Origin: a bacterium
GTDB taxonomy: Bacteria; Patescibacteriota; Microgenomatia; Daviesbacterales; UBA10151
Direction of reading: 5' to 3'
Assembly: GCA_021786315.1 (NCBI GenBank)
Contig: JAJYNN010000002.1
Coordinates: 545,494 to 609,493 of the forward strand
DNA: 64,000 nt
Both the position numbers and the translations under genes were made by a program. The stretch's first letter is position 1, and each line of letters opens with the position of its first letter. Below the pieces are notes generated by a model. That model was not told the DNA's origin. It saw only the letters and a list, made by a program, of their open reading frames with translations, and did no database searches. Below are positions 11,318-51,291 of the stretch, piece by piece.

Positions 11318-11517
11318 TTATTAATCCTTTCTGTTGCCATCACAAGATCTTTTTGTGAAACAAAAAGTAGACTTATGATTGCGACATTTCTCCTGTTCTT
11401 CATTTGACATTCCTTTCCCATTAAAAAAACCGCCTGTCCGCGGTGCAATAATTATACCTTTTTAAGCTTCAAATCACAAACATAAAGGTGACGCCTCGTC
11501 CGAAGGCAGGCGCCACC

Positions 11518-11850
11518 TTAAGAAATTACTAGAACATCACCAATTTCAGTTTTAGTTTGTTTTATTGTCCCTTCAGGTAATTCCAAAACCAATCCATATT
11601 TAGGGTTCCAAAAGAAAAACTGATTGGGTTCAATGGATTCTCCGATCTTTACCACCTTATTACTCTTGTCCAAAACCAAGATATCAATATTCTCCTTCAT
11701 CAATAGGGTATGCATCCCCAATCTCGTTTTAAACATCAGAGATCTGGGGTTGGATTTTCTAAGCAGCCCCAAGAATTTATCCAAAACAGAATTACAAAGT
11801 TTTAAATCAGTGGCCAGAATAGTTTTTTTGCTTTGATTGACAACTTCCAT
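11518..11850 (-). CDS. DUF192 (COG1430) domain protein, second copy
   Basis: LRKSNPRSLMFKTRLGMHTLLMKENIDILVLD follows the DUF192 pattern. Confidence 0.5.
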   Translation of the reverse strand: MEVVNQSKKTILATDLKLCNSVLDKFLGLLRKSNPRSLMFKTRLGMHTLLMKENIDILVLDKSNKVVKIGESIEPNQFFFWNPKYGLVLELPEGTIKQTKTEIGDVLVIS

Positions 11851-15091: not shown

Positions 15092-16069
15092 ATGGAAGAT
15101 AACCTGCCCAAATCTGATAATCAATTTTGGTATGAAAATCAGCCCAACCATAATGAACCTCTTCAACCACAACCAGAACCTGCTCCTGCTGGTCCTCCAA
15201 TTCAAATAACAGAGAATAAGAAATACTCAGAGAAAAATGACCCGCCGATGGTAGATGTTAAAGTGACCAATCCTGTCTCCTACTTTAAAAAGTGGGTTAA
15301 ACATCTTTTAGGTAATGAGGGTATTGATATCGGTTTCAAATTTAAAGTTAAACCCTTAACCGCCATAGCTTTAATGGTTGCCTTGGCTGTTTCTTTTGGC
15401 ACTGGTTATGGAACTGGATTAAACGCCGCTGCCGGAGTTTTATTCCCCAACTCCTCCCCGCTTTTACACAGAACCGTGATGTACCAAGGAAATTTGCAAA
15501 AGGCAGGTGACAAATATCTTCTAATCCTTCCCAATTCAGATACTTATACTTTAAAACCCAAATCCAATACTAATATTAACTTTCAAAATTTAACTGATGG
15601 CCCGGTTTTAGTTAAAGGAAACTTAACCAGGGAAGCGTTTGTGATTGAACCCTCAGAAGTTATATCTTTAGGTGGTTCAGCCCCTGAGCCGCAAGCTACC
15701 CTTACCCCAACTAACTCTTCCATCTCTAATCCCACCGATTTCCCTAGTCTTTACCCCAGCCTGACTTGGGAAGTAACTCAAGAAAAAGTTTTAATATTTA
15801 CTTCGGGAAAAAGAAAGATCGAACAAAATGGTGTCTACCTGGAATCTGCTCAGGTACCTACTCTTCCTCAAGATTTCTTGAATTACTATACCAATGAGCT
15901 ACAAACCAAAGGTTTTGAGGAAACCTTAAATTCCAAAGATCCGGAAGGAACCACAATCACCTTTGCCAAAAATGACCTCTACTTAACCTTCGGCATCAAA
16001 AACATCTTTAAAGGCTCAGGCGACACCCGCCAACTCTCCGGCTACAAAGCCTTCATAGAACATAACTGA
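15092..16069 (+). CDS. Pro-rich membrane-anchored hypothetical protein (paralog A of 26482..27273)
   Basis: The core DPPMVDVKVTNPVSYFKKWVKHLLGNEGIDIGFKFKVKPLTAIALMVALAVSFGTGY is shared with the island-borne paralog. Confidence 0.5.
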   Translation: MEDNLPKSDNQFWYENQPNHNEPLQPQPEPAPAGPPIQITENKKYSEKNDPPMVDVKVTNPVSYFKKWVKHLLGNEGIDIGFKFKVKPLTAIALMVALAVSFGTGYGTGLNAAAGVLFPNSSPLLHRTVMYQGNLQKAGDKYLLILPNSDTYTLKPKSNTNINFQNLTDGPVLVKGNLTREAFVIEPSEVISLGGSAPEPQATLTPTNSSISNPTDFPSLYPSLTWEVTQEKVLIFTSGKRKIEQNGVYLESAQVPTLPQDFLNYYTNELQTKGFEETLNSKDPEGTTITFAKNDLYLTFGIKNIFKGSGDTRQLSGYKAFIEHN

Positions 16070-16084
16070 TCTCCACGCAGGGCG

Positions 16085-16702
16085 TTGCCTTGCGTAGGCT
16101 CAGTTAACAACATATGGTATTATTCCCCCATGGCTGAAAGATCAATATTAGGAATAACAGAAGAAAGAGTTAATAGAGCTGAAGACATTGTAGAAGAAAC
16201 TACCGATATCGAAAGAACCGACGATATGTTTAGGTTTATTAGAGGTGTAAACAAAAGGATATCCCGGGAACAAAGAGAACTTTATCTTAATTTAAAAACC
16301 GCCAAGGAAAGATTTCAAGTTGGTTCAGCACTCGCTTATGGATATGCAGCTGCAGTAACTTATGAAATGCTTCCTGATGAAGTAAGAAAAATTGAACTCA
16401 CTCAGGATCAAGTGGAGACTTCAACCAAGAGCCTACTTGATTCAAACCAAGATGAAAATGGATGCTTTGATTGGTATTTGGACAAATTAATAGCCGACTC
16501 TCCTTATTATATTAACTGGTTAATAGATACACTTGAAGATATTGAAGACCCAGAAGAAAAGCGTGATTTTACCTATGGTAGCGTTCTAGTCACACTTCCT
16601 TTTTATCAAAGAGGCGAGGCGTTTATCTTAGCCAATCAAATATGGTATAGACAAGACAGACCTCTCCTTACCTTACTCGAAGTTGAACTTGTACCACAAT
16701 AA
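16085..16702 (+). CDS. hypothetical protein (acidic)
   Basis: 205-aa ORF. No recognisable domain. Confidence 0.35.
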   Translation: MPCVGSVNNIWYYSPMAERSILGITEERVNRAEDIVEETTDIERTDDMFRFIRGVNKRISREQRELYLNLKTAKERFQVGSALAYGYAAAVTYEMLPDEVRKIELTQDQVETSTKSLLDSNQDENGCFDWYLDKLIADSPYYINWLIDTLEDIEDPEEKRDFTYGSVLVTLPFYQRGEAFILANQIWYRQDRPLLTLLEVELVPQ

Positions 16703-16810: not shown

Positions 16811-18406
16811 CTAAATATAGATGGCGCGTTCGTCTAGAGGCCTAGGACACTGGGTTTTCATCCCAGGAATCGCGGGTTCGAATCCCGCACGCGCTACTGA
16901 GAGGGATTGTAAGAAGGTTGTGTTTGATTTCCTCTGCGCGGGTGGGGGCGCGCAGAGCTCTCTAAAGCCCTGATTGTAGTCTACGGAAAGTTGCCGATTC
17001 AATAAAAAGAAGTTCGAGCCGACAGTTTTTGCTCCTATGCTTAAATCGGAGCATGTATTTTTTGCGCGCGCGATTTTTGCGCACGAAAGTGCGCTTCCGA
17101 CCCACTCTCTCATAGGTTCGAGCCAACTCGAACCGTTTTGTCTTATTCTCTCCAAATCTTCCTGAATTTTAAGTTTTTGTTCAAAAACTTCGTTCTTTTT
17201 ACTTTTATAAGTTTCACCATCTATTACCTGATCCAAGAAACTATCAAGTAACAAATTGAGCTTTTTATCTAAAGTTTCCAGCTCGTTTTTTAGGGAGATT
17301 ATATTTTCCTCAATGAACTTTTGCTCCTCAACTTCATCCCGATCCATCCATTTATACCAATCATGAGCCCAACTTTCGGGAATAGACACATCAGAAACAA
17401 TCTTTCTTACTTGTAGTTCTAAATCTTCTTGAGAAATATATTTTTGAGAACAAGGTTTAATTTTCTTAGTGCATCTATAGTAAATAAAGGTTTGTTTATT
17501 ACCATTTTTATATTTTTTAGTATGAGTTTCGGTAGTAATAGCCGCACCGCACTCTCCGCACCTCATCAAACCTCTAAAAGCAAAATCATGGCCATTTTTC
17601 CTTGGTCTTTCAATTCTTTTTATTTCTTGTTGAGCAGAATCAAATAGTTTTTTAGAGATAAATGTTTTATGAGAGCCCTGATAATACTCACCGTTATACT
17701 TTAAAATCCCAATATAAAATCTGTTGGATAGCATTTTCTTTATTTGGTTTATATGTAAAGGTTTTTTGTTTATGGTTGTACTTACCCAACCTCGAGTTAA
17801 CCCTAATTTGTGAAGATAGAGGGATATTTCCTTGTAAGATTTACCTCCCTCGGCAAAAAGTTCAAAGGCCTTTTTAATTGCTAAAGAAGTTTCCGGATCT
17901 ACTTGAACAGTTTTTGTATTCGAGTCGTTTTTATACCCGAAAGGTGCTTTCATTGGCCAAACTCCATTGCGAAGTTTTTGCCTTAGCCCACGTTTTACAT
18001 TTTCTGATAAGTTGTCGACATAATATTTGGATTGGCCAAAGGCAATATTTAGCATAAATTTTCCCTGTGGAGTATTTTCAAACCAGAAGGTAGGGAATTT
18101 AAGGTTTAGAAGATTACCGGTATCCAAGAGGTAAATTATTTGGCCGCCGTCAATTGAGTTACGAGCTAATCTATCGGGATGCCAGGCAATAATACCTTGT
18201 GCCTGTCCTTTCTCGATCTTTTTTATTACCTCTGCGAATTTTTCTCTTCCGGGGAGTTTAGCGGTTTTTGACTCTGTTATAAATTCTTTGATTTCTAAGT
18301 TCTCTCTTTTGGCAAATTCTTGAAGCTCAGCAATTTGAGCCTCAATAGAAAGGACTTGTCTATCCTTCTCATCTGTTGATTTTCGGCAGTATGCTATATA
18401 TTTCAT
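16811..18406 (-). CDS. large serine recombinase (resolvase/invertase catalytic domain + recombinase domain + Zn-ribbon + coiled coil)
   Basis: N-terminal YCRKSTDEKDRQVLSIEAQ (Y-x-R-x-S motif), GIIAWHPDRLARN, a Cys4 ribbon CGECG...YYRC, and a coiled-coil tail. The frame has no stop until 16811, so it reads through IR1-left into the tRNA-Glu antisense. The true 3' end is uncertain. Confidence 0.8.
   Translation of the reverse strand: MKYIAYCRKSTDEKDRQVLSIEAQIAELQEFAKRENLEIKEFITESKTAKLPGREKFAEVIKKIEKGQAQGIIAWHPDRLARNSIDGGQIIYLLDTGNLLNLKFPTFWFENTPQGKFMLNIAFGQSKYYVDNLSENVKRGLRQKLRNGVWPMKAPFGYKNDSNTKTVQVDPETSLAIKKAFELFAEGGKSYKEISLYLHKLGLTRGWVSTTINKKPLHINQIKKMLSNRFYIGILKYNGEYYQGSHKTFISKKLFDSAQQEIKRIERPRKNGHDFAFRGLMRCGECGAAITTETHTKKYKNGNKQTFIYYRCTKKIKPCSQKYISQEDLELQVRKIVSDVSIPESWAHDWYKWMDRDEVEEQKFIEENIISLKNELETLDKKLNLLLDSFLDQVIDGETYKSKKNEVFEQKLKIQEDLERIRQNGSSWLEPMREWVGSALSCAKIARAKNTCSDLSIGAKTVGSNFFLLNRQLSVDYNQGFRELCAPPPAQRKSNTTFLQSLSVARAGFEPAIPGMKTQCPRPLDERAIYI
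16823..16896 (+). tRNA. tRNA-Glu (anticodon UUC)
   Basis: GGCGCGTTCGTCTAGAGGCCTAGGACACTGGGTTTTCATCCCAGGAATCGCGGGTTCGAATCCCGCACGCGCTA. D-arm TTCGTCTAGAGGCC is typical of tRNA-Glu. Anticodon loop TTTTCAT. Confidence 0.9.
16894..16996. repeat. IR1-left: 103-bp perfect inverted repeat (partner 18490..18592)
   Basis: Exact reverse-complement match to 18490-18592, verified base by base. Overlaps the last 3 nt of tRNA-Glu. Confidence 0.9.
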
Positions 18407-18489
18407 GGCAGTTTATCTTTAGGGGAAAAGTTCTTTTAGCGACAGCGTTTCCCAGAAATTTTTGCGTGTCTTCTTACTATCTTTCTTTA

Positions 18490-18592
18490 CGGCAACTTTC
18501 CGTAGACTACAATCAGGGCTTTAGAGAGCTCTGCGCGCCCCCACCCGCGCAGAGGAAATCAAACACAACCTTCTTACAATCCCTCTCAGTAG
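18490..18592. repeat. IR1-right: 103-bp perfect inverted repeat (partner 16894..16996)
   Basis: Exact reverse complement of 16894-16996. Lies between the recombinase start (18406) and IR2. Confidence 0.9.
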
Positions 18593-27273: not shown

Positions 27274-27339
27274 AAATCCAGTATATCTACTAGATTAGAA
27301 AGGTGCAACTGCAGCGGAAATATACAAAAAGTTATCCAA

Positions 27340-28330
27340 TATATTGTGTATTGACTCGGCTTTCCATACAAGGTGTAAAATTTAATTACTCTCTGCAGTA
27401 GCGGAGGTAGAAGGGAGGGCCATGAATTTGACCCAACTTTTGTACTCCGTGAGTATCTTTGGTAATTGAAACTAGCAAACGGACAAGCAAGGAGGATCCA
27501 AATAACCTTGCTTACTTAATTGTTCAGGGAAGATTACTGACAACACTCTAGCGGAGGCTCACCTTTGTCTTACCTAAAGGTTAAGTGTTGTCTACCGGAA
27601 AATTGGGAGAGAATAACCAATCAAAGCAAACTGAGACGTCGGTTTGGGGAGATATAGGTATTAGGTACTTTTGTAGGTGAGAGGGCCACTCAGTATTCTC
27701 ACTGGGTGGCCTTTTCTTTATTCTCCTTGCAAACTCTTTTCTCTTCTGTGGCGGTTCCGCCGCCCCCGCCCCTTTGGGATAATAACCGTTCAGGAGGGCA
27801 GCACCTTAGAAGAAATCTTTTTGGAATTAGTAGTAAGTAAAATGGGTGCTGCCCGACAATAGCGAGGGCCGAGAAAGCCAAGTCATATTTTAGAAGAACC
27901 GGCCCGAGCCCTCGGAATTAGTGCGAGAAAGTTTCTCGAGAAACTTTCGAGCGGCATGGATGCAAGTAGGGCTAAAAATTGCGGCGGGGGCGATTGCGGA
28001 CAAACCCCCGCAACGGCAGGAGGTATTAGAAAGAAGAAAAGGGTAGGCGAAAAGTACCGAAGGTAACCTTACCCAACGAACTTTTCGCCGAGTTAGATAC
28101 TACCAATACTAGTTCGTAAGGCAACAATATAGGCGAGGCGCCCCCTAGGGCGACCTCTCGCCCAAAAGCGGGGGTGCCGCTACTACTAATTTGGGTGGGT
28201 GGGTTAGTTCAGGATACAAGATTTACTCTTCTTACCCGTTACCGTAGCGGTAACGGTATCCGTAACGGTCCGTTACGGTGATTAGCTTGTCAAAAACCGC
28301 TAAACTCCCCATTCTTAAATATCTTAATAA
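27340..28330 (+). other. ~1 kb GC-rich non-coding region with dense predicted secondary structure (candidate structured ncRNA and/or iteron/ori-like region)
   Basis: No ORF of 62 aa or longer on either strand. GC-rich helices in an AT-rich genome. Several helices only work with G-U pairs on the + strand. Contains a 22-bp perfect palindrome and four ~11-nt CCGTTACGG-type repeats. Confidence 0.3.
27684..27720 (+). terminator. rho-independent terminator-like hairpin inside the non-coding region
   Basis: GGCCACTCAGT-attctc-ACTGGGTGGCC followed by TTTTCTTTA. Confidence 0.5.
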
Positions 28331-28384
28331 TTCTTTAAAAATCGCGCGCTTTTCTGTCTCTTAGCAAAAAATACCAGAGCGAGG

Positions 28385-28499
28385 CCGAAGGCCGAGCTTA
28401 AAGATCAGAAGGCCCCGACGCGAAGCGGAGGGGCTTCTACCGACCGACCGATGCATACGTCGATTTGAAATAGGTTCGAATTTGTTGATACCGTACTAC
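28385..28499. repeat. IR2-right: 115-bp perfect inverted repeat (partner 18589..18703)
   Basis: Exact reverse complement of 18589-18703. Confidence 0.9.
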
Positions 28500-28510
28500 A
28501 AAAGAAAAAG

Positions 28511-28540
28511 TCCTCCCTTCGGGGAGGCTTTTTGTTTTTT
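28511..28540. terminator. bidirectional rho-independent terminator
   Basis: CCTCCC-TTCG-GGGAGG hairpin with a T-run on the + strand (CTTTTTGTTTTTT) and an A-run before it. Insulates the island from the sigma/anti-sigma operon. Confidence 0.65.
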
Positions 28541-28639
28541 AACTGTGATTAGGCAAGAATCTGCGCATCTCGCAGAGCTAAGCAGGTTCGATCAGGCAAA
28601 GCCTGACAACATCTTCGAGCAAAGCGAGAAGTAGTGTTA

Positions 28640-28657
28640 ATCCCCGCACGCGCTACT
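28640..28657 (+). repeat. direct repeat of tRNA-Glu 3' end (putative attR core)
   Basis: atccccgcacgcgctact versus tRNA 16882-16898 atcccgcacgcgctact (one extra C). Preceded by the motif acaacatcttcgagcaaagcgagaagtagtgtta. Confidence 0.7.
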
Positions 28658-30668: not shown

Positions 30669-30775
30669 CGATTTAGGATTTAGGAATTAGGAATAAATTC
30701 TTAAATCTTACCTCTTAAATCTTAAGAACTTGCTCACAAGTTCGCAAGACCTTGCGACAGCAAGCTGTCTTAAAT

Positions 30776-31408
30776 CTATATTAAGAACTTTTCCAGATTA
30801 AAAGATTTCCTATGAATTCGGGATAAACCATGTTTTTTGATGGCATCCCGATGAGCCTTTGTCCCGTAACCCTTATGTTTATTAAAACCATATTGGGGAT
30901 ATTTTCCGTGCAATTCATCCATTAATTTATCCCGGTGAACCTTGGCAATAATAGAAGCTGCCGCTATCGAGATAGACAATTGATCTCCTTTAATAATCGG
31001 TTCCTGTTTCTTCCGATTAAGATGCTTAATGTAAAAAGCGTCTATTAGAATAAAGTCAGGATTCTTATCCAGGGATTTAACTGCTTTCCTGAAAGCCATC
31101 TGGGTAGCTTTACCAATTCCCAGCTTATTAATGTGACAGACAGGAATTTCGGCAATTGACCAGGCAAGGGCAGTTTTCTTAATCTCTTCTGCCAGTTTCT
31201 CCCGCTTTTTCGGAGTTAAAAGTTTAGAATCAGCAATTCCCTCCGGTATCTCACGCAAGGCGTCACCTTGCACAGGCTCAGCAAAGATTACAGCACCGAC
31301 CACCACCGGCCCGGCAAAACACCCCCGGCCAACCTCATCCAAGCCACAAACATACCGATAACCTAATTTCCAGTATTTTTCTTCAAATTCGAGTGTGGGA
31401 TAGATCAT
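30776..31408 (-). CDS. rnhB: ribonuclease HII
   Basis: VCGLDEVGRGCFAGPVVVGAV, DSKLLTPKKRE, and a C-terminal KGYGT. Start chosen at MIYPTLEFEEKYWK. Confidence 0.9.
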   Translation of the reverse strand: MIYPTLEFEEKYWKLGYRYVCGLDEVGRGCFAGPVVVGAVIFAEPVQGDALREIPEGIADSKLLTPKKREKLAEEIKKTALAWSIAEIPVCHINKLGIGKATQMAFRKAVKSLDKNPDFILIDAFYIKHLNRKKQEPIIKGDQLSISIAAASIIAKVHRDKLMDELHGKYPQYGFNKHKGYGTKAHRDAIKKHGLSRIHRKSFNLEKFLI

Positions 31409-31547
31409 AAACCTTTGATAAAAACAATTTATAAATACCAAGTACCAATTTACAATGAATTTTCAAAAACTCAATGATCAAAAGTTTAGAACTTCGAACA
31501 TTGAAATTTATTTGAAAATTGTAAACTGAAAATTGAAAATTCTGAAG

Positions 31548-31862: not shown

Positions 31863-31889
31863 GGACTAAATTTTAACCTAAGATCAGCT

Positions 31890-35593: not shown

Positions 35594-36478
35594 TCAATTT
35601 CTAAGTAATTCAGAAACAGTGACAAATTGAAAACCTCTCTTTTTAAGGTCAGGAATTATCTTCTCCAAAGCATCATTAGTCTTGGGGGCATTCGGCCCTC
35701 CATGAATATGGAAAACAATGATCGAGCCGTTTTGTACTTGAGATTCGACCTTGTTAATAATCGACTGGGTATTGGGGTTAAAGCCGTCACCCGAGATAAC
35801 GTCCCAATGGACAACCTTTAACCCTAATTTAGCTACGGTTTCCAAATTTACCTTATCGTAACATCCTCCGGGGAAACGGAAATATTTAGGGGTAACCCCC
35901 GTAACCGCAACGATCTCCTTTTGGGCTTGTTCTACCTCATCTACGGCTGATTCTGAAAGAAAAGGCAGCTTAAAGCAGCTCTTAGTAAAAGCCGGGTGGG
36001 CATAGGAATGATTGCCAATCTCTATCAATTTATCCTGGGCCAATTCCTTAGCTTCCTGAGGATATGCCTTAACCCAAAGTCCGGTTAAAAAGATAGTGGC
36101 CGGTACATTTTCCCGATCCAAAGTATCTTTAATCGGCTTGTTGTACCAAGACTTCACTACCCCTTTTTGCAGCAGCGCCAACATCCCCGGAGTCATGTCC
36201 GCATCAAAAGTTAAAGCCACTACCTTTTTATTCCGAGGCCCGTGTTCAATAACCTCCGGCTTCAGAGCTTGCTGGGGAGAACTTTGGAACTTCCGGATAA
36301 TAAAATTTTTTGGTGACGGCTGCTCAGCTTGTTCAGGGGGATAAACAAATGACTGGTAATCTACGGCAATAAAAATTAAAACAGAAAATACTAATCCAAC
36401 CAAAACAATGGTGATATTTTTAAGATTTCTTTTAAAAAGATCGACCGGGTATCTTTTAACCTTTTTTCTTTGCCTCAC
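35594..36478 (-). CDS. polysaccharide deacetylase (NodB homology domain) with N-terminal TM
   Basis: VALTFDADMTPGM (TFDD motif), HSYAHP, FRFPGG. Confidence 0.7.
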   Translation of the reverse strand: MRQRKKVKRYPVDLFKRNLKNITIVLVGLVFSVLIFIAVDYQSFVYPPEQAEQPSPKNFIIRKFQSSPQQALKPEVIEHGPRNKKVVALTFDADMTPGMLALLQKGVVKSWYNKPIKDTLDRENVPATIFLTGLWVKAYPQEAKELAQDKLIEIGNHSYAHPAFTKSCFKLPFLSESAVDEVEQAQKEIVAVTGVTPKYFRFPGGCYDKVNLETVAKLGLKVVHWDVISGDGFNPNTQSIINKVESQVQNGSIIVFHIHGGPNAPKTNDALEKIIPDLKKRGFQFVTVSELLRN

Positions 36479-37939: not shown

Positions 37940-39313
37940 TTAAGCCTCCTTTCCTAAATCTGGTTTTTTATTATGCCAATCAGTTGATTGTTCATAAATT
38001 TCCCCTATATTTAAAATTGTCTCTTCATCCAAATATTTACCTAAAATCTGCAAACCTACCGGCAGACCATCGGAAAATCCGCAGGGAACTGACAACCCAG
38101 GGATTCCAGCGAGCGATGCCGGGATTGTATAGACATCAGATAGATACATAGTTAAAGGATCTTCAATCTTTTCTCCCAAATTCCAGGCTACTGTCGGAGA
38201 AACCGGACCCACAATCACCTCACATTTTTCAAATGCTTTTTCAAAATCCTGTTTAATCAAGGTTCGAACTTCGGCAGCTTTGGCAAAATAATCATCGTAG
38301 TATCCGGTAGAGAGAGCAAAAGTTCCGAGCATTATTCTTCTTTTAACCTCCGGGCCAAAGTCTTCCCGCCCTGATCCAAACCTAATACCGTCAAATTTGG
38401 CCATATTGGAAGAAACCTCAGAAGACATAATAATGTAATAGGCAGCCACGGCATATTCAGTGTGAGGCAAGCTCACTTCGACAATTTCCGCTCCCAATTC
38501 TTCTAACTTTTTAATAGCTTCACGGATAACCTTCTCTACCCCTTTATCCAATCCCTTACCAAAATATTCTCTCGGCACCCCAACCCTTACTCCCGCAAGG
38601 CATCCCCTTGCGGCGCAAGGCGTCACCTTGCACGAAGCTGGATCAACACAATTTGAGTCCTTTCCATCTGGCCCGGAAATCCATTCTAAAACTAACCTGG
38701 CATCTGCCACTGATTTTGTTATCGGGCCAATTTGGTCCAAAGATGAGGCCATAGCAATTGCCCCATACCTGGGCACCCTTCCATAACTCGGTTTAAGCCC
38801 GACCACTCCACAAAGTGAGGCTGGTTGGCGGATTGAGCCACCGGTATCGGTTCCCAAAGCAAAAGTACAAAGGTCTGCCGCTACCGCTGCCGCTGATCCG
38901 CTGGAAGATCCGCCGGGTACTTTTGTCTCATTCCAAGGGTTTTTCGTTGGACCATAGGCTGAATTCTCGCCCGATGAACCCATGGCAAACTCGTCCAAAT
39001 TTGTTTTTCCGATTATCCCAATCCCCTTTTCTTTGAGGCGGTCAATTACTGTTGCACTATAAGGAGGAACGAAATTACTCAATATTTTTGATCCCGCAGT
39101 AGTCCTAATATTTTGAGTACAAATTATATCCTTTATTGCTGCAGGCATATTTTGGGGATTTTTTTTAATTTCCAGAAAAATATTTAGCCTCGGATTTATT
39201 TTTTCAATTCTTTCGAGGTAAGCCTTATTTAATTCCTCCGATGAGAATTTCTTTTCCTCTAAAGCTTTTAAGGTTTCTATCAGTGTTAATCCGGTAATAT
39301 CATTCATTCTCAA
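37940..39313 (-). CDS. gatA: Glu-tRNA(Gln) amidotransferase subunit A (amidase signature)
   Basis: [15 protein letters not shown] amidase signature. Located in a gatCAB operon. Confidence 0.95.
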
Positions 39314-49874: not shown

Positions 49875-50768
49875 ATGCTAGTTAAAGGAACAGAAGTTAT
49901 TGGTGCCAAGGTTTTTACAATTGACGAAGGCGAACAGGTTGAGGATGTGGATGATGTTATCTACAATCCTCAAACGAACCGGGTAGAAGCCCTTCTTGTC
50001 TCCCCTAGCGGCATTTTTTCCGAAGCTAAGCTAATATTGCTTAAAGATGCCCGGGGTGTAGGTAAAGATGCGGTTTTAATTCAAAACAAAGATATTATGA
50101 AAAATTCCTCCGATATTCCCTCCAATTTAGCGTCCATTGCCACCAAAGGTGCCTATTTAACGGAAAACAGGATTATTTCCGAATCAGGAGTAGACCTGGG
50201 GAAAGTAGTTGATATTTTATTTGACAGCCAAAGCGGTAAAGTTGAGGAATTTGAAGTCTCCCAAGGCCTAAGAGATGTTGCAACAGGCAGAAAACGAGTT
50301 AAAGTTTCGGACATTATTACTGTCGGGAAAGATGCTGTAATTGTGAAAGGCTACACGGAAGAAAAAGTCAGTGAGCAGGCAAAAAGCGGCGGAGTTGTTG
50401 GGGCAGTCAATAAAGGTGCAGAAACTATCCGTCGGGAAGGGCCAAAATACTACGAACAGGCCAAAACCAAGGCTCAGGAATATGCCGATAGAGCCAGGAG
50501 TAAAGCCGAGGAATACCGGCAAAAACCGGAGACCCAAAAAACCATTAACGAAGCCAAAATAGAGGCAAAAAAACTAAAGGGGCAAGCTTCAGAAACATAC
50601 CAAAGGGTCAAGGGTAAAGCAAAAGAAGCAAAAAGGACACAGAGCCCAAAAGTTCGGTCAATGGCCCAAAGAGCCCGGGAAGAAGCAGCCCAATACCGTG
50701 CCCAAGCTCAACAAACTACTAGACCAAAATCCCGAAAAACAACTAAGAAATCCTCTAAAAGAAGGTGA
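49875..50768 (+). CDS. tandem PRC-barrel domain protein with Lys/Gln-rich C-terminal tail
   Basis: Two PRC-barrel-like segments (GAKVFTIDEGEQVEDVDDVIYNP...; GKVVDILFDSQSGKVEEFEVSQG), then a KAEEYRQKPETQK low-complexity tail. Confidence 0.5.
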   Translation: MLVKGTEVIGAKVFTIDEGEQVEDVDDVIYNPQTNRVEALLVSPSGIFSEAKLILLKDARGVGKDAVLIQNKDIMKNSSDIPSNLASIATKGAYLTENRIISESGVDLGKVVDILFDSQSGKVEEFEVSQGLRDVATGRKRVKVSDIITVGKDAVIVKGYTEEKVSEQAKSGGVVGAVNKGAETIRREGPKYYEQAKTKAQEYADRARSKAEEYRQKPETQKTINEAKIEAKKLKGQASETYQRVKGKAKEAKRTQSPKVRSMAQRAREEAAQYRAQAQQTTRPKSRKTTKKSSKRR

Positions 50769-50865
50769 CTTCCTCGCCAAAGCCAGGCGTTACCTTAGCA
50801 CTTTTCCCCTCCATAAAGGTGACCTCCTTGGCGTATAGCAAGGGGTCACCTTGCGCATTGAAAAG

Positions 50866-51291
50866 TTAAGGTAACTGGTTATCAGAAACTGGCGAGGCAG
50901 GAGTTGTGGGAGTTTCAACTTGTGTCTCTGCCGGCTTATTACTTTGTTCTACTTCTAATCCAGGAACTTGAGTAAATCGAGAAAGACCACCAGTCGCTTC
51001 TCCTAATGTATTCGATGCAGGTTGTGTTTTAAGGGGGATTGAAGGAATTGGTAACTTCACTTCAGGTTCCTCTTTTCTAGGAGGAGGAGTCACTCCTGAT
51101 TGCTCTAACGCAAAGTCTTTTACCTGACTGGCAGCTTCCTTGGTTGCAGCACCTAAAGCATCAGGCATCGACTTTGCAAGTAAACCAGCTGCTTCCCCAG
51201 CAGTCATATGTGGAGTTTCAGAAGAAGAATCAAGGGAACCCAAAGGTAGCTCTTTTTCTTCAAAGCTTCCACCAATCACATCATCTTTCAT
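50866..51291 (-). CDS. acidic low-complexity hypothetical protein
   Basis: 141-aa ORF. Pro/Thr/Glu-rich. Confidence 0.25.
   Translation of the reverse strand: MKDDVIGGSFEEKELPLGSLDSSSETPHMTAGEAAGLLAKSMPDALGAATKEAASQVKDFALEQSGVTPPPRKEEPEVKLPIPSIPLKTQPASNTLGEATGGLSRFTQVPGLEVEQSNKPAETQVETPTTPASPVSDNQLP

Follow-up and report, generated by a model that had tools for sequence, protein, structure and literature searches.

A short palindromic hairpin inside gatA and rnhB of a Candidatus Daviesbacteria genome and its physical link with Y1_Tnp genes in related loci

A short GC-rich hairpin, GCAAGG-N5-CCTTGC (GCAAGGNNNNNCCTTGC), is dispersed over a 64-kb stretch of DNA from Candidatus Daviesbacteria (Microgenomates, candidate phyla radiation or CPR), hereafter called the window and covered over its 64 kb by all the window searches reported here. 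Among named organisms, those closest to it by the GatA and RnhB proteins are Daviesbacteria. The hairpin lies between genes and also, in frame, inside two genes, gatA and rnhB, where it is read in several frames; the RnhB orthologs have a gap at its position. In other genomes, the same hairpin is physically linked to genes encoding transposases of the Y1_Tnp family. With a probability of about two in three, the window hairpins are small repeats of the repetitive extragenic palindromic (REP) type that belong to a system resembling the REP-associated tyrosine transposases (RAYTs). This proposal is made because the hairpin brackets a Y1_Tnp gene, because its copies are more numerous than chance predicts and because they are dispersed near gene ends. 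Among related Microgenomates (Daviesbacteria, Shapirobacteria), this hairpin would be the cognate repeat of a RAYT-type HUH/Y1 transposase of about 230 amino acids (aa).

Copies of the hairpin in the window

The pattern search located four perfect copies, at 31255–31271, 38595–38611, 38615–38631 and 50838–50854, all four on the + strand, and no match was obtained in 100 dinucleotide-preserving shuffles of the window. An earlier note on this DNA, drawn from the letters alone, had placed the pattern twice in gatA and once in rnhB, antisense to both genes, as well as in intergenic positions, had described one 17-mer as common to the two genes and had quoted a Cys-rich GatA peptide and an RnhB peptide. 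All these statements stand: the 17-mer GCAAGGCGTCACCTTGC is the same letter for letter at 31255 (rnhB) and 38615 (gatA), and the peptides are as translated. The core of the element consists of a 6-bp GC-rich stem and a 5-nt loop. The intragenic copies and their host genes are as follows.

30776–31441, − strand: rnhB (RNase HII), host of a single hairpin, identified by orthologs and Pfam; the Met at 31408 is likely the true start.
31248–31281, + strand: rnhB copy, made of the 5' flank ATCTCAC, the hairpin at 31255–31271 and the tail ACAGGCTCAG, delimited by ortholog gap, fold and flank comparison.
37940–39313, − strand: gatA (Asp/Glu-tRNA amidotransferase subunit A), host of the double hairpin, identified by orthologs and Pfam.
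38595–38611, + strand: sister hairpin GCAAGG-CATCC-CCTTGC, 3 nt away from the following one.
38615–38631, + strand: perfect hairpin GCAAGG-CGTCA-CCTTGC, antisense to gatA.

The codons carried by these copies are TGC-AAG-GTG-ACG-CCT-TGC (38615) and GCA-AGG-GGA-TGC-CTT-GCG (38595) in gatA and CAA-GGT-GAC-GCC-TTG-CGT in rnhB, giving the peptides C-K-V-T-P-C, A-R-G-C-L-A and Q-G-D-A-L-R, respectively, from three different frames. Therefore, the repeat is defined at the nucleotide level and not by selection on the protein. Single copies fold at −8.7 to −19.9 kcal/mol and the gatA dimer at −28.5 kcal/mol, with z scores ranging from −1.4 (rnhB copy, + strand) to −3.9. The palindrome is thus short and foldable as a single-strand hairpin, like REPs, which measure about 20–40 nt.

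Lineage-specific segments had been expected in both proteins, and ortholog alignment bears this out most clearly for RnhB, whose segment EPVQGDALREIPEG was confirmed by translation. The stretch from the strand VVGAVIF to DSK counts 21 residues in 110 of the 115 orthologs and 27 in the window protein alone (seen first in a 32-sequence alignment and then in one of 115). The protein is therefore longer, as the earlier note had it, but by 6 aa and not by about 7. QGDALR is absent from all 114 other orthologs compared; its codons are CAAGGTGACGCCTTGCGT, i.e. the palindrome plus one base, and the net gain amounts to 18 nt of palindrome (approximately 31253–31270). In the AlphaFold model of RnhB (mean predicted local distance difference test, pLDDT, 82.5), the insert corresponds to residues 47–52 of an unstructured region spanning 42–60, with pLDDT below 50 at 48–51. 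Judged from these alignments, the rnhB copy is a clean lineage-specific addition of 18 nt, probably a recent one. It shares with the Rickettsia palindromic elements (RPEs) the character of an in-frame insertion in a conserved gene that is absent from orthologs.

The situation differs in gatA, whose two hairpins form a head-to-tail dimer of 37 nt with a period of 20 (z −3.0 for the fold given above). They fall in a segment of GatA, from W.SG.D..DSN to G(V/I)P.EY, that is hypervariable across 120 orthologs and mostly 19–23 aa long, with a mode of 22. The window loop counts 23 aa, i.e. a single residue more than the mode, and the region aligns with that of Pseudomonas GatA (PDB 4wj3) with a single-residue gap. 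As loop length is kept and the gap is limited to one residue, the gatA repeat is a replacement and not a net insertion; the expectation of a lineage-specific segment thus holds among the 120 orthologs, but that of a lengthened protein does not. A GatA structure model (mean pLDDT 63.7) was too poor for any statement about the loop.

Related hairpins occur in the same loop of other GatA orthologs (loci and orthologous proteins from other genomes are designated below by L and P numbers). The gene for P0036 (L145) carries, in the same frame, the core GCAAGGTGACGCCTTGC-GCC-GCAAGG inside a 30-aa loop, and the window element equals the L145 form minus about 24 nt. The tandem dimer would have replaced the ancestral loop, and a deletion (about 24 nt, taking the L145 form as reference) would then have trimmed its length. 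Only the element of about 30 nt is shared between the two genes, the gatA DNA around it being 63–73% identical, and no recombination tract was seen around the element. The gene for P0022 (L122) carries, in the same codon phase, the inverted dimer CAAGG-CCTCC-CCTTGC-AGTACT-GCAAGG-GGAGG-CCTT, and L122 has a second copy at the start of gatC. At the same place of gatA, L146 has GCAACC-TGAAA-GGTTGC followed by AGGCT. Loop types are scattered over the GatA tree and the hairpin-bearing orthologs are not mutual nearest relatives; vertical inheritance of the gatA element was considered and is unsupported by the clustering of GatA sequences. The loop DNA folds at −37.6 kcal/mol in L149 and −36.1 kcal/mol in L122, and shows little or no structure in L125, L147 and L148 (−4.9, −8.8 and −3.3 kcal/mol). 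No hairpin copy was found anywhere in the loci of the nearest syntenic relatives, L125 (21 kb) and L148.

Outside genes, the following copies and one possible relative were distinguished.

11483–11520: possible relative, a 38-nt imperfect palindrome with arms AAGGTGACGCCT / AGGCGCCACCTT, at the 3' end of the open reading frame (ORF) 11518–11850 (− strand); its membership is not established.
16066–16103, + strand: degenerate copy CTGATCTCCAC, GCAGGGCGTTGCCTTGC, GTAGGCTCAG, beginning on the stop codon of ORF 15092–16069.
50782–50799, + strand: degenerate copy GCCAGGCGTTACCTTAGC, recognized by eye alignment and fold.
50815–50832, − strand: degenerate copy, reverse complement of GCCAAGGAGGTCACCTTT, recognized in the same way and in the same spacer.
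50838–50854, + strand: perfect copy GCAAGG-GGTCA-CCTTGC, between the convergent genes 49875–50768 (+) and 50866–51291 (−).

Five loci are found in 64 kb, three intergenic and two intragenic, a density of about one copy per 13–16 kb, and the intergenic copies adjoin gene 3' ends or lie between convergent genes. Window copies are uniformly oriented on one replichore, a trend that rests on four independent loci and is not significant. Relatives of the hairpin had previously been reported in the spacer 50783–50856; the copy at 50838 is perfect, but those at 50782 and 50815 are only degenerate, with mismatches and indels relative to the core. Together the three make a +/−/+ cluster, and the 111-nt spacer that holds them folds at −41.2 kcal/mol (z −4.1).

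The copy at 16077–16093 (GCAGGGCGTTGCCTTGC) had been overlooked. It folds as a 39-nt hairpin (−19.9 kcal/mol, z −3.7), and on either side it matches the rnhB copy and a copy in another genome, L117, located immediately after the stop codon of lon. Similarity among the three extends about 10 nt past each end of the hairpin, which stands between TGAGCCTRY and GTRGRGAT when read on the − strand and between (C)NCAC and RYAGGCTCAG when read on the + strand. These common flanks indicate a unit longer than 17 nt, of about 35–40 nt. The 5' flanks of the copies read CTCAC, CCAC, CCTAC or CTCCC on one strand and CCTGT or CCTAC on the other.

Searches beyond the window gave mostly sporadic matches. A pattern search of genome contigs with GCAAGGNGTCACCTTGC returned a list of at least 117 loci; the matches listed were mostly single chance ones in high-GC genomes, four of the loci carry a Y1 gene, and the source genome was not among the matches listed. 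A metagenome scan with the 20-mer CGCAAGGCGTCACCTTGCAC gave four matches, three of them in contigs of 63–65% GC, which were judged to be due to chance, and viral contigs gave 19 single matches to the hairpin, without enrichment.

Y1_Tnp genes flanked by the hairpin

The evidence that gives the hairpin a candidate enzyme comes from L149, the contig of the GatA ortholog P0051. Directly after dnaE, it carries a gene encoding a 230-aa protein assigned to Pfam PF01797 (Y1_Tnp), with the HxH (HUH-type) and YIH (Tyr) motifs. Repeats of about 40 nt, having GACGCCTTGCGTG in common with the window element, lie on both sides of this gene. Searches of all the collected DNA with this protein, by tblastn and by hidden Markov model (HMM), detected homologs in L091, L077 and L073 (57–63% identity) and in L100 (32%), four loci that had been collected by the 17-mer pattern alone. 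The hairpin lies at most about 110 nt from both gene ends in L091, L077 and L073. The gene of L100 is more divergent and 5'-truncated (179 aa), with a downstream copy only, which lies over its stop codon.

In two other Daviesbacteria contigs, L150 and L151, the syntenic position of the gene is that known from L149, dnaE-[Y1, antisense]-rplS-rnhB (10411–11103 in L149, 10001–10693 in L150 and 6398–7087 in L151), and in both of them it is bracketed by their own genome's version of the hairpin. The DnaE proteins of these three genomes are only about 60% identical to that of the window. The hairpin thus occurs on both sides of a Y1_Tnp gene in six loci (L149, L150, L151, L077, L091 and L073), with about three copies per Y1-bearing locus. 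The corresponding site of the window is a short spacer.

31863–31889: dnaE–rplS spacer of 27 nt, the Y1_Tnp site of L149–L151, empty in the window.

The third copy is internal. All six full-length Y1 ORFs contain it, right after the catalytic-Tyr motif RYIHKQ, in degenerate form in L077, L149 and L151. It codes for ALALQG-x-A(L/W), LQGDAL being the commonest version among 111 homologs; the RnhB insert likewise reads QGDAL. One and the same stem/loop variant is found in the flanking and internal copies of four of the six loci (L150, L077, L091 and L151). Indeed, all three copies of L150 are CAGGGC-CTC-GCCCTG, the loop is AGTCA in L077 and CGACG in the upstream and internal copies of L091, and L151 uses the stem CAAGGC/GCCTTG, a variant that is also present at another site in its gatA (residue ~65). 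The remaining two, L073 and L149, have an internal copy whose loop is inverted with respect to that of the flanking ones.

The sole NCBIfam match of the Y1 proteins is the REP-associated tyrosine transposase (NF047646, REP_Tyr_transpos; E 6e-9). The family comprises 7,174 proteins at E <1e-10, the named members of which are annotated as transposases of Daviesbacteria or Levybacteria, and nearly every protein cluster was seen on one contig.

As in vitro for TnpA-REP of Escherichia coli, the Y1 enzyme would bind to the hairpin as folded single-stranded DNA, cleave next to it and insert copies at other sites. By analogy, this enzyme would be the one that moves the hairpin, and the source genome would have, or have had, such an enzyme. 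In-frame copies landing in unconstrained surface loops would survive as harmless, and other hits in essential coding sequences would be purged. More tentatively, and with less likelihood than the general REP-type proposal, these genes might form a distinct CPR clade of RAYT-like enzymes, having their own hairpin in the ORF, that act in cis on their neighbourhood from the fixed dnaE–rplS site and rewrite the gatA and rnhB loops. Such a cis action would explain the repeated overwriting of the neighbouring gatA and rnhB loops across Daviesbacteria, the window being the footprint left after loss or relocation of the gene.

Alternative explanations and known systems

Several observations weigh against the REP-type interpretation. 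The window contains no Y1_Tnp gene or recognizable pseudogene, as judged by Pfam on neighbouring ORFs, tblastn to E 20 and the clade HMM on the six-frame translation; its best match to Y1 is an 18-aa fragment (E 0.07) inside another gene. The Y1 proteins score 36.0, 28.5 and 34.4 bits against NF047646, under its cut-off of 80 bits. The canonical GTAG/CGTC tag 5' of the palindrome is absent in the copies compared: GTAG occurs in just two of them (16094 and L117), on the 3' side of the hairpin, and CGTC only within the loop. About five loci per 64 kb also represent a low copy number, as classical REP families count hundreds of copies. The net gain of 18 nt in rnhB is smaller than the unit of about 34 nt implied by the shared flanks, and the length of the gatA loop is unchanged; gains smaller than the unit imply either insertion followed by trimming, or short-patch conversion or template switching. 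Lastly, the action of the enzyme on the hairpin of its clade is a prediction from sequence.

The second of these two routes would dispense with a dedicated transposase: the hairpin would spread by short-patch gene conversion or template switching between copies and microhomologous sites, the loop DNA being overwritten. This explanation, the main alternative, is unlikely, although it would account for a GatA loop of 23 aa (against the modal 22) that aligns to 4wj3 with a one-residue gap despite two hairpins, for a gain of 18 nt in rnhB where about 34 nt resemble the other copies, for distant GatA orthologs having related hairpins at the same codon position between flanks that are not unusually similar, and for a window without any Y1 gene. 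However, it leaves unexplained the presence of the hairpin around the Y1 gene in seven independent loci (downstream only in L100) and the co-variation of these copies, and the lengths are equally well accounted for by insertion followed by deletion, L145 having kept the 30-aa form. Rather improbable is the maintenance of the hairpin for a role in RNA or DNA, as a 3'-end stabilizer, terminator, pause or processing site in the gatCAB-dnaE transcript, or as a protein-binding site. In that case, it is the presence of a hairpin at this place of gatA that would be conserved. Sequence-different hairpins at the same gatA position (L146, L149, L122), two stem pairs swapped compensatorily, the perfect stems of four copies and the intergenic copies directly 3' of stop codons would fit such a role, but the gatA loop is hardly structured, or not at all, in L125, L147 and L148, and the rnhB copy is found in the window genome only. 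Furthermore, intrinsic-terminator calling found nothing at the hairpin copies, no T-run (U-tract in RNA) follows any of them, and an Rfam scan of the window detected tRNAs only and no family at the hairpins. Little covariation is seen in the stem, as its very sequence is conserved; this agrees better with sequence-specific recognition than with a role of the structure alone. A tRNA-like or anticodon-arm reading of the hairpin was also considered and was ruled out by the loop positions, on sequence inspection.

The Y1 genes and their hairpins could also be ordinary insertion sequences (ISs) of the IS200/IS605 type, the window hairpins being left-over ends or palindrome-associated derivatives. 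Y1_Tnp is indeed the Pfam family of IS200, the gene is bracketed by hairpins as by IS ends, and its score falls under the RAYT equivalog cut-off. This is nevertheless very unlikely, since the gene occupies one syntenic site in three genomes whose DnaE is so distant from that of the window, nearly all protein clusters occur on one contig, both flanking hairpins have the same sequence instead of being distinct left and right ends, and isolated hairpins are dispersed without the gene. There is hardly any likelihood that the copies result from chance, from coding-driven convergence or from a DNA-uptake or restriction signal. Their common orientation would suit an uptake signal, and competence genes are known in CPR bacteria; but the shuffles gave no match, the genic copies use three reading frames, the density of one per 13–16 kb is far below that of known uptake sequences and the nearest relatives have no copy at all.

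Its anatomy brings the element close to REP–RAYT systems (REPtrons). RAYTs have been described as single-copy, vertically inherited genes associated with REPs (PMC5581495), and TnpA-REP of E. coli binds the single-stranded REP and cleaves it beside the hairpin; such binding and cleavage have been demonstrated only for the enzymes of E. coli, Stenotrophomonas maltophilia and Marinomonas (PMC8266576). Like these systems, the element described here is a short GC-rich hairpin with a 17-nt core, or about 35–40 nt with its flanks, whose window copies are single, dimeric or in a small cluster, mostly by gene 3' ends; published REPs are similarly found, when intergenic, near 3' ends or between convergent genes (PMC3733652). 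In addition, the Y1/HUH gene of related genomes is bracketed by the repeat, is apparently single-copy and keeps its place in the chromosome, and the repeat variant evolves together with its genome. The stem is comparable in size to that of known REPs, which has 8 bp with a loop of 3 nt in S. maltophilia and 5 bp in Marinomonas (PMC8266576). Departures from these systems are the lack of GTAG on the 5' side of the palindrome, a low copy number, a protein of about 230 aa that is extended at its C-terminus and scores 36 bits where NCBIfam REP_Tyr_transpos requires 80, a copy of the repeat within the transposase ORF just past the catalytic Tyr motif, a host belonging to the CPR (Patescibacteria) and the lack of the transposase gene in the window itself.

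Intragenic REPs tagged by GTAG or CGTC (Di Nocera et al. 2013, PMC3733652) provide a second parallel. Single or dimeric, these palindromes lie wholly within ORFs and are translated in frame with them; they are frequent in genes related to replication, repair or tRNA, and they include the small Rickettsia elements RPE-4 and RPE-6. Furthermore, related species may have different REPs near one site of a gene (recB there, gatA and rnhB here), and REP ends may supply stop codons, as the flank containing the lon stop does in L117. The present hairpin differs from them by the lack of GTAG or CGTC as a terminal tag at the canonical place, by a 6-bp stem without A/T first pairs and by a gatA loop that is replaced and not lengthened. 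With IS200/IS605 elements, the system shares the transposase superfamily (PF01797), hairpins as recognition elements and a single-strand chemistry that would fit the uniform orientation of the copies on one replichore (four loci, not significant). It differs from them by the same hairpin on both sides, a syntenic and apparently single-copy gene and isolated hairpins without the gene.

The earlier note had likened the hairpins to RPEs. As in RPE-1, which is not known to have a transposase partner, a palindromic repeat is found in frame in unrelated essential genes, at positions compatible with the fold, and this part of the likeness holds. However, RPEs measure about 100–150 bp and code for a conserved peptide module of 30–50 aa (PMC10969869), whereas the present elements measure 17–37 nt (18 nt gained in rnhB, 37 nt in gatA) and code for 6–12 aa. 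The RPE of about 150 bp is therefore a poorer analogue than REPs of 20–40 nt with a Y1 transposase (PMC10969869, PMC3733652).

Small intragenic palindromic repeats and REP–RAYT systems are already known. No specific report of REP/RAYT systems or palindromic repeats in CPR/Patescibacteria was found in the literature; REP/RAYT systems have been studied mainly in Proteobacteria. What appears to be new is their presence in CPR bacteria with a divergent clade of 230-aa Y1 proteins having the repeat inside their own ORF, a fixed chromosomal site beside gatA and rnhB, whose loops carry the repeat, and a single GatA loop that palindromes have overwritten again and again in a set of more than 100 orthologs. 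These data suggest that even ultra-small CPR genomes keep a REP/RAYT-type system. As the essential single-copy genes for GatA and RNase HII have taken up hairpins in their coding sequence without being destroyed, an unusual segment of a CPR protein, Cys-rich or of the QGDAL type, can derive from a repeat instead of being a functional motif, a point of importance for annotation. Such repeats would also be a steady source of loop variation in protein evolution, and the copy inside the transposase ORF raises the question of self-recognition or autoregulation. For enzymology, the hairpin and the Y1 protein offer a concrete pair for REP mobilization outside Proteobacteria. If the cis-acting variant were true, a domesticated transposase would continually re-edit the surface loops of adjacent essential proteins.

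Other palindromes and neighbouring features

Palindromes of other sequences were observed in the same two genes. A 21-nt GC palindrome, CCCCGCC-ATC-GGCGGGG, lies in frame a few codons from the rnhB insertion site in three of the 115 orthologs, P0135 (L124, 1766–2410), P0170 and P0220, where it codes for SPRHRRG (SPRHRRGKN). In L149, the DNA of the gatA loop forms a 63-nt hairpin (the fold at −37.6 kcal/mol mentioned above) that includes AAGGTGACACCT. GatA loops range overall from 15 to 44 aa (P0002–P0120), and several of them contain repeat-like peptides: IASPLRGLAMT, SLRGA.ATRQS, VIARSEATKQS..EIASS, HLRGE..SHLGG, FTMQPSRLQA and KDLRFK.

Near gatA, a polysaccharide deacetylase gene (35594–36478, − strand) separates gatB from dnaE in the window; in the syntenic loci L125, L146, L147, L149 and L150, dnaE comes immediately after gatB. 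In L146 (11451–12806), gatB is split into two ORFs (320 and 104 aa), which points to a frameshift, a fault in the assembly or an element lying between them.

About 700 bp from the degenerate copy at 16077, a gene encoding a large serine recombinase (Resolvase, Recombinase and Zn-ribbon domains) abuts a tRNA-Glu gene (16823–16897). It is bracketed by two perfect inverted 26-nt hairpins, CTCTGCGCG-N8-CGCGCAGAG, at 16932–16957 and 18529–18554, and this segment (16811–18554) may be an integrated or invertible element. Farther on, 1.4 kb without credible ORF (27274–28652) contain dense GC-rich hairpins, such as CCGTTACCG-TAG-CGGTAACGG beside CCGTAACG-GTC-CGTTACGG, and two terminator-like hairpins; no significant Rfam family was detected in this region.

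The apex (G)CAAGGTGWCACCTTG(C) is recurrent in L001, L011, L019, L021, L042, L056, L076, L078, L100 and L109, which belong to Paceibacterota, Saccharibacteria and other CPR bacteria, sometimes with two or three occurrences per locus. It sits in longer palindromes whose outer stems differ and which often have A- and T-runs at their sides. These palindromes may belong to the same REP superfamily or be bidirectional terminators.

On the 3' side of rnhB, the earlier note had counted 30741–30775 as a further copy. The hairpin found there (30741–30757, TCGCAAG-ACC-TTGCGA) has only GCAAG/CTTGC in common with the family, and its membership is not shown. AT-rich repeats (cttaaatctta...cttaaatcttaag) are present next to it, at 30690–30735. 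Their complement, TTAAGATTTAAG, resembles DNA that would code for KDLRFK, a peptide that several orthologs have at the C-terminus and that also occurs in the GatA loop.

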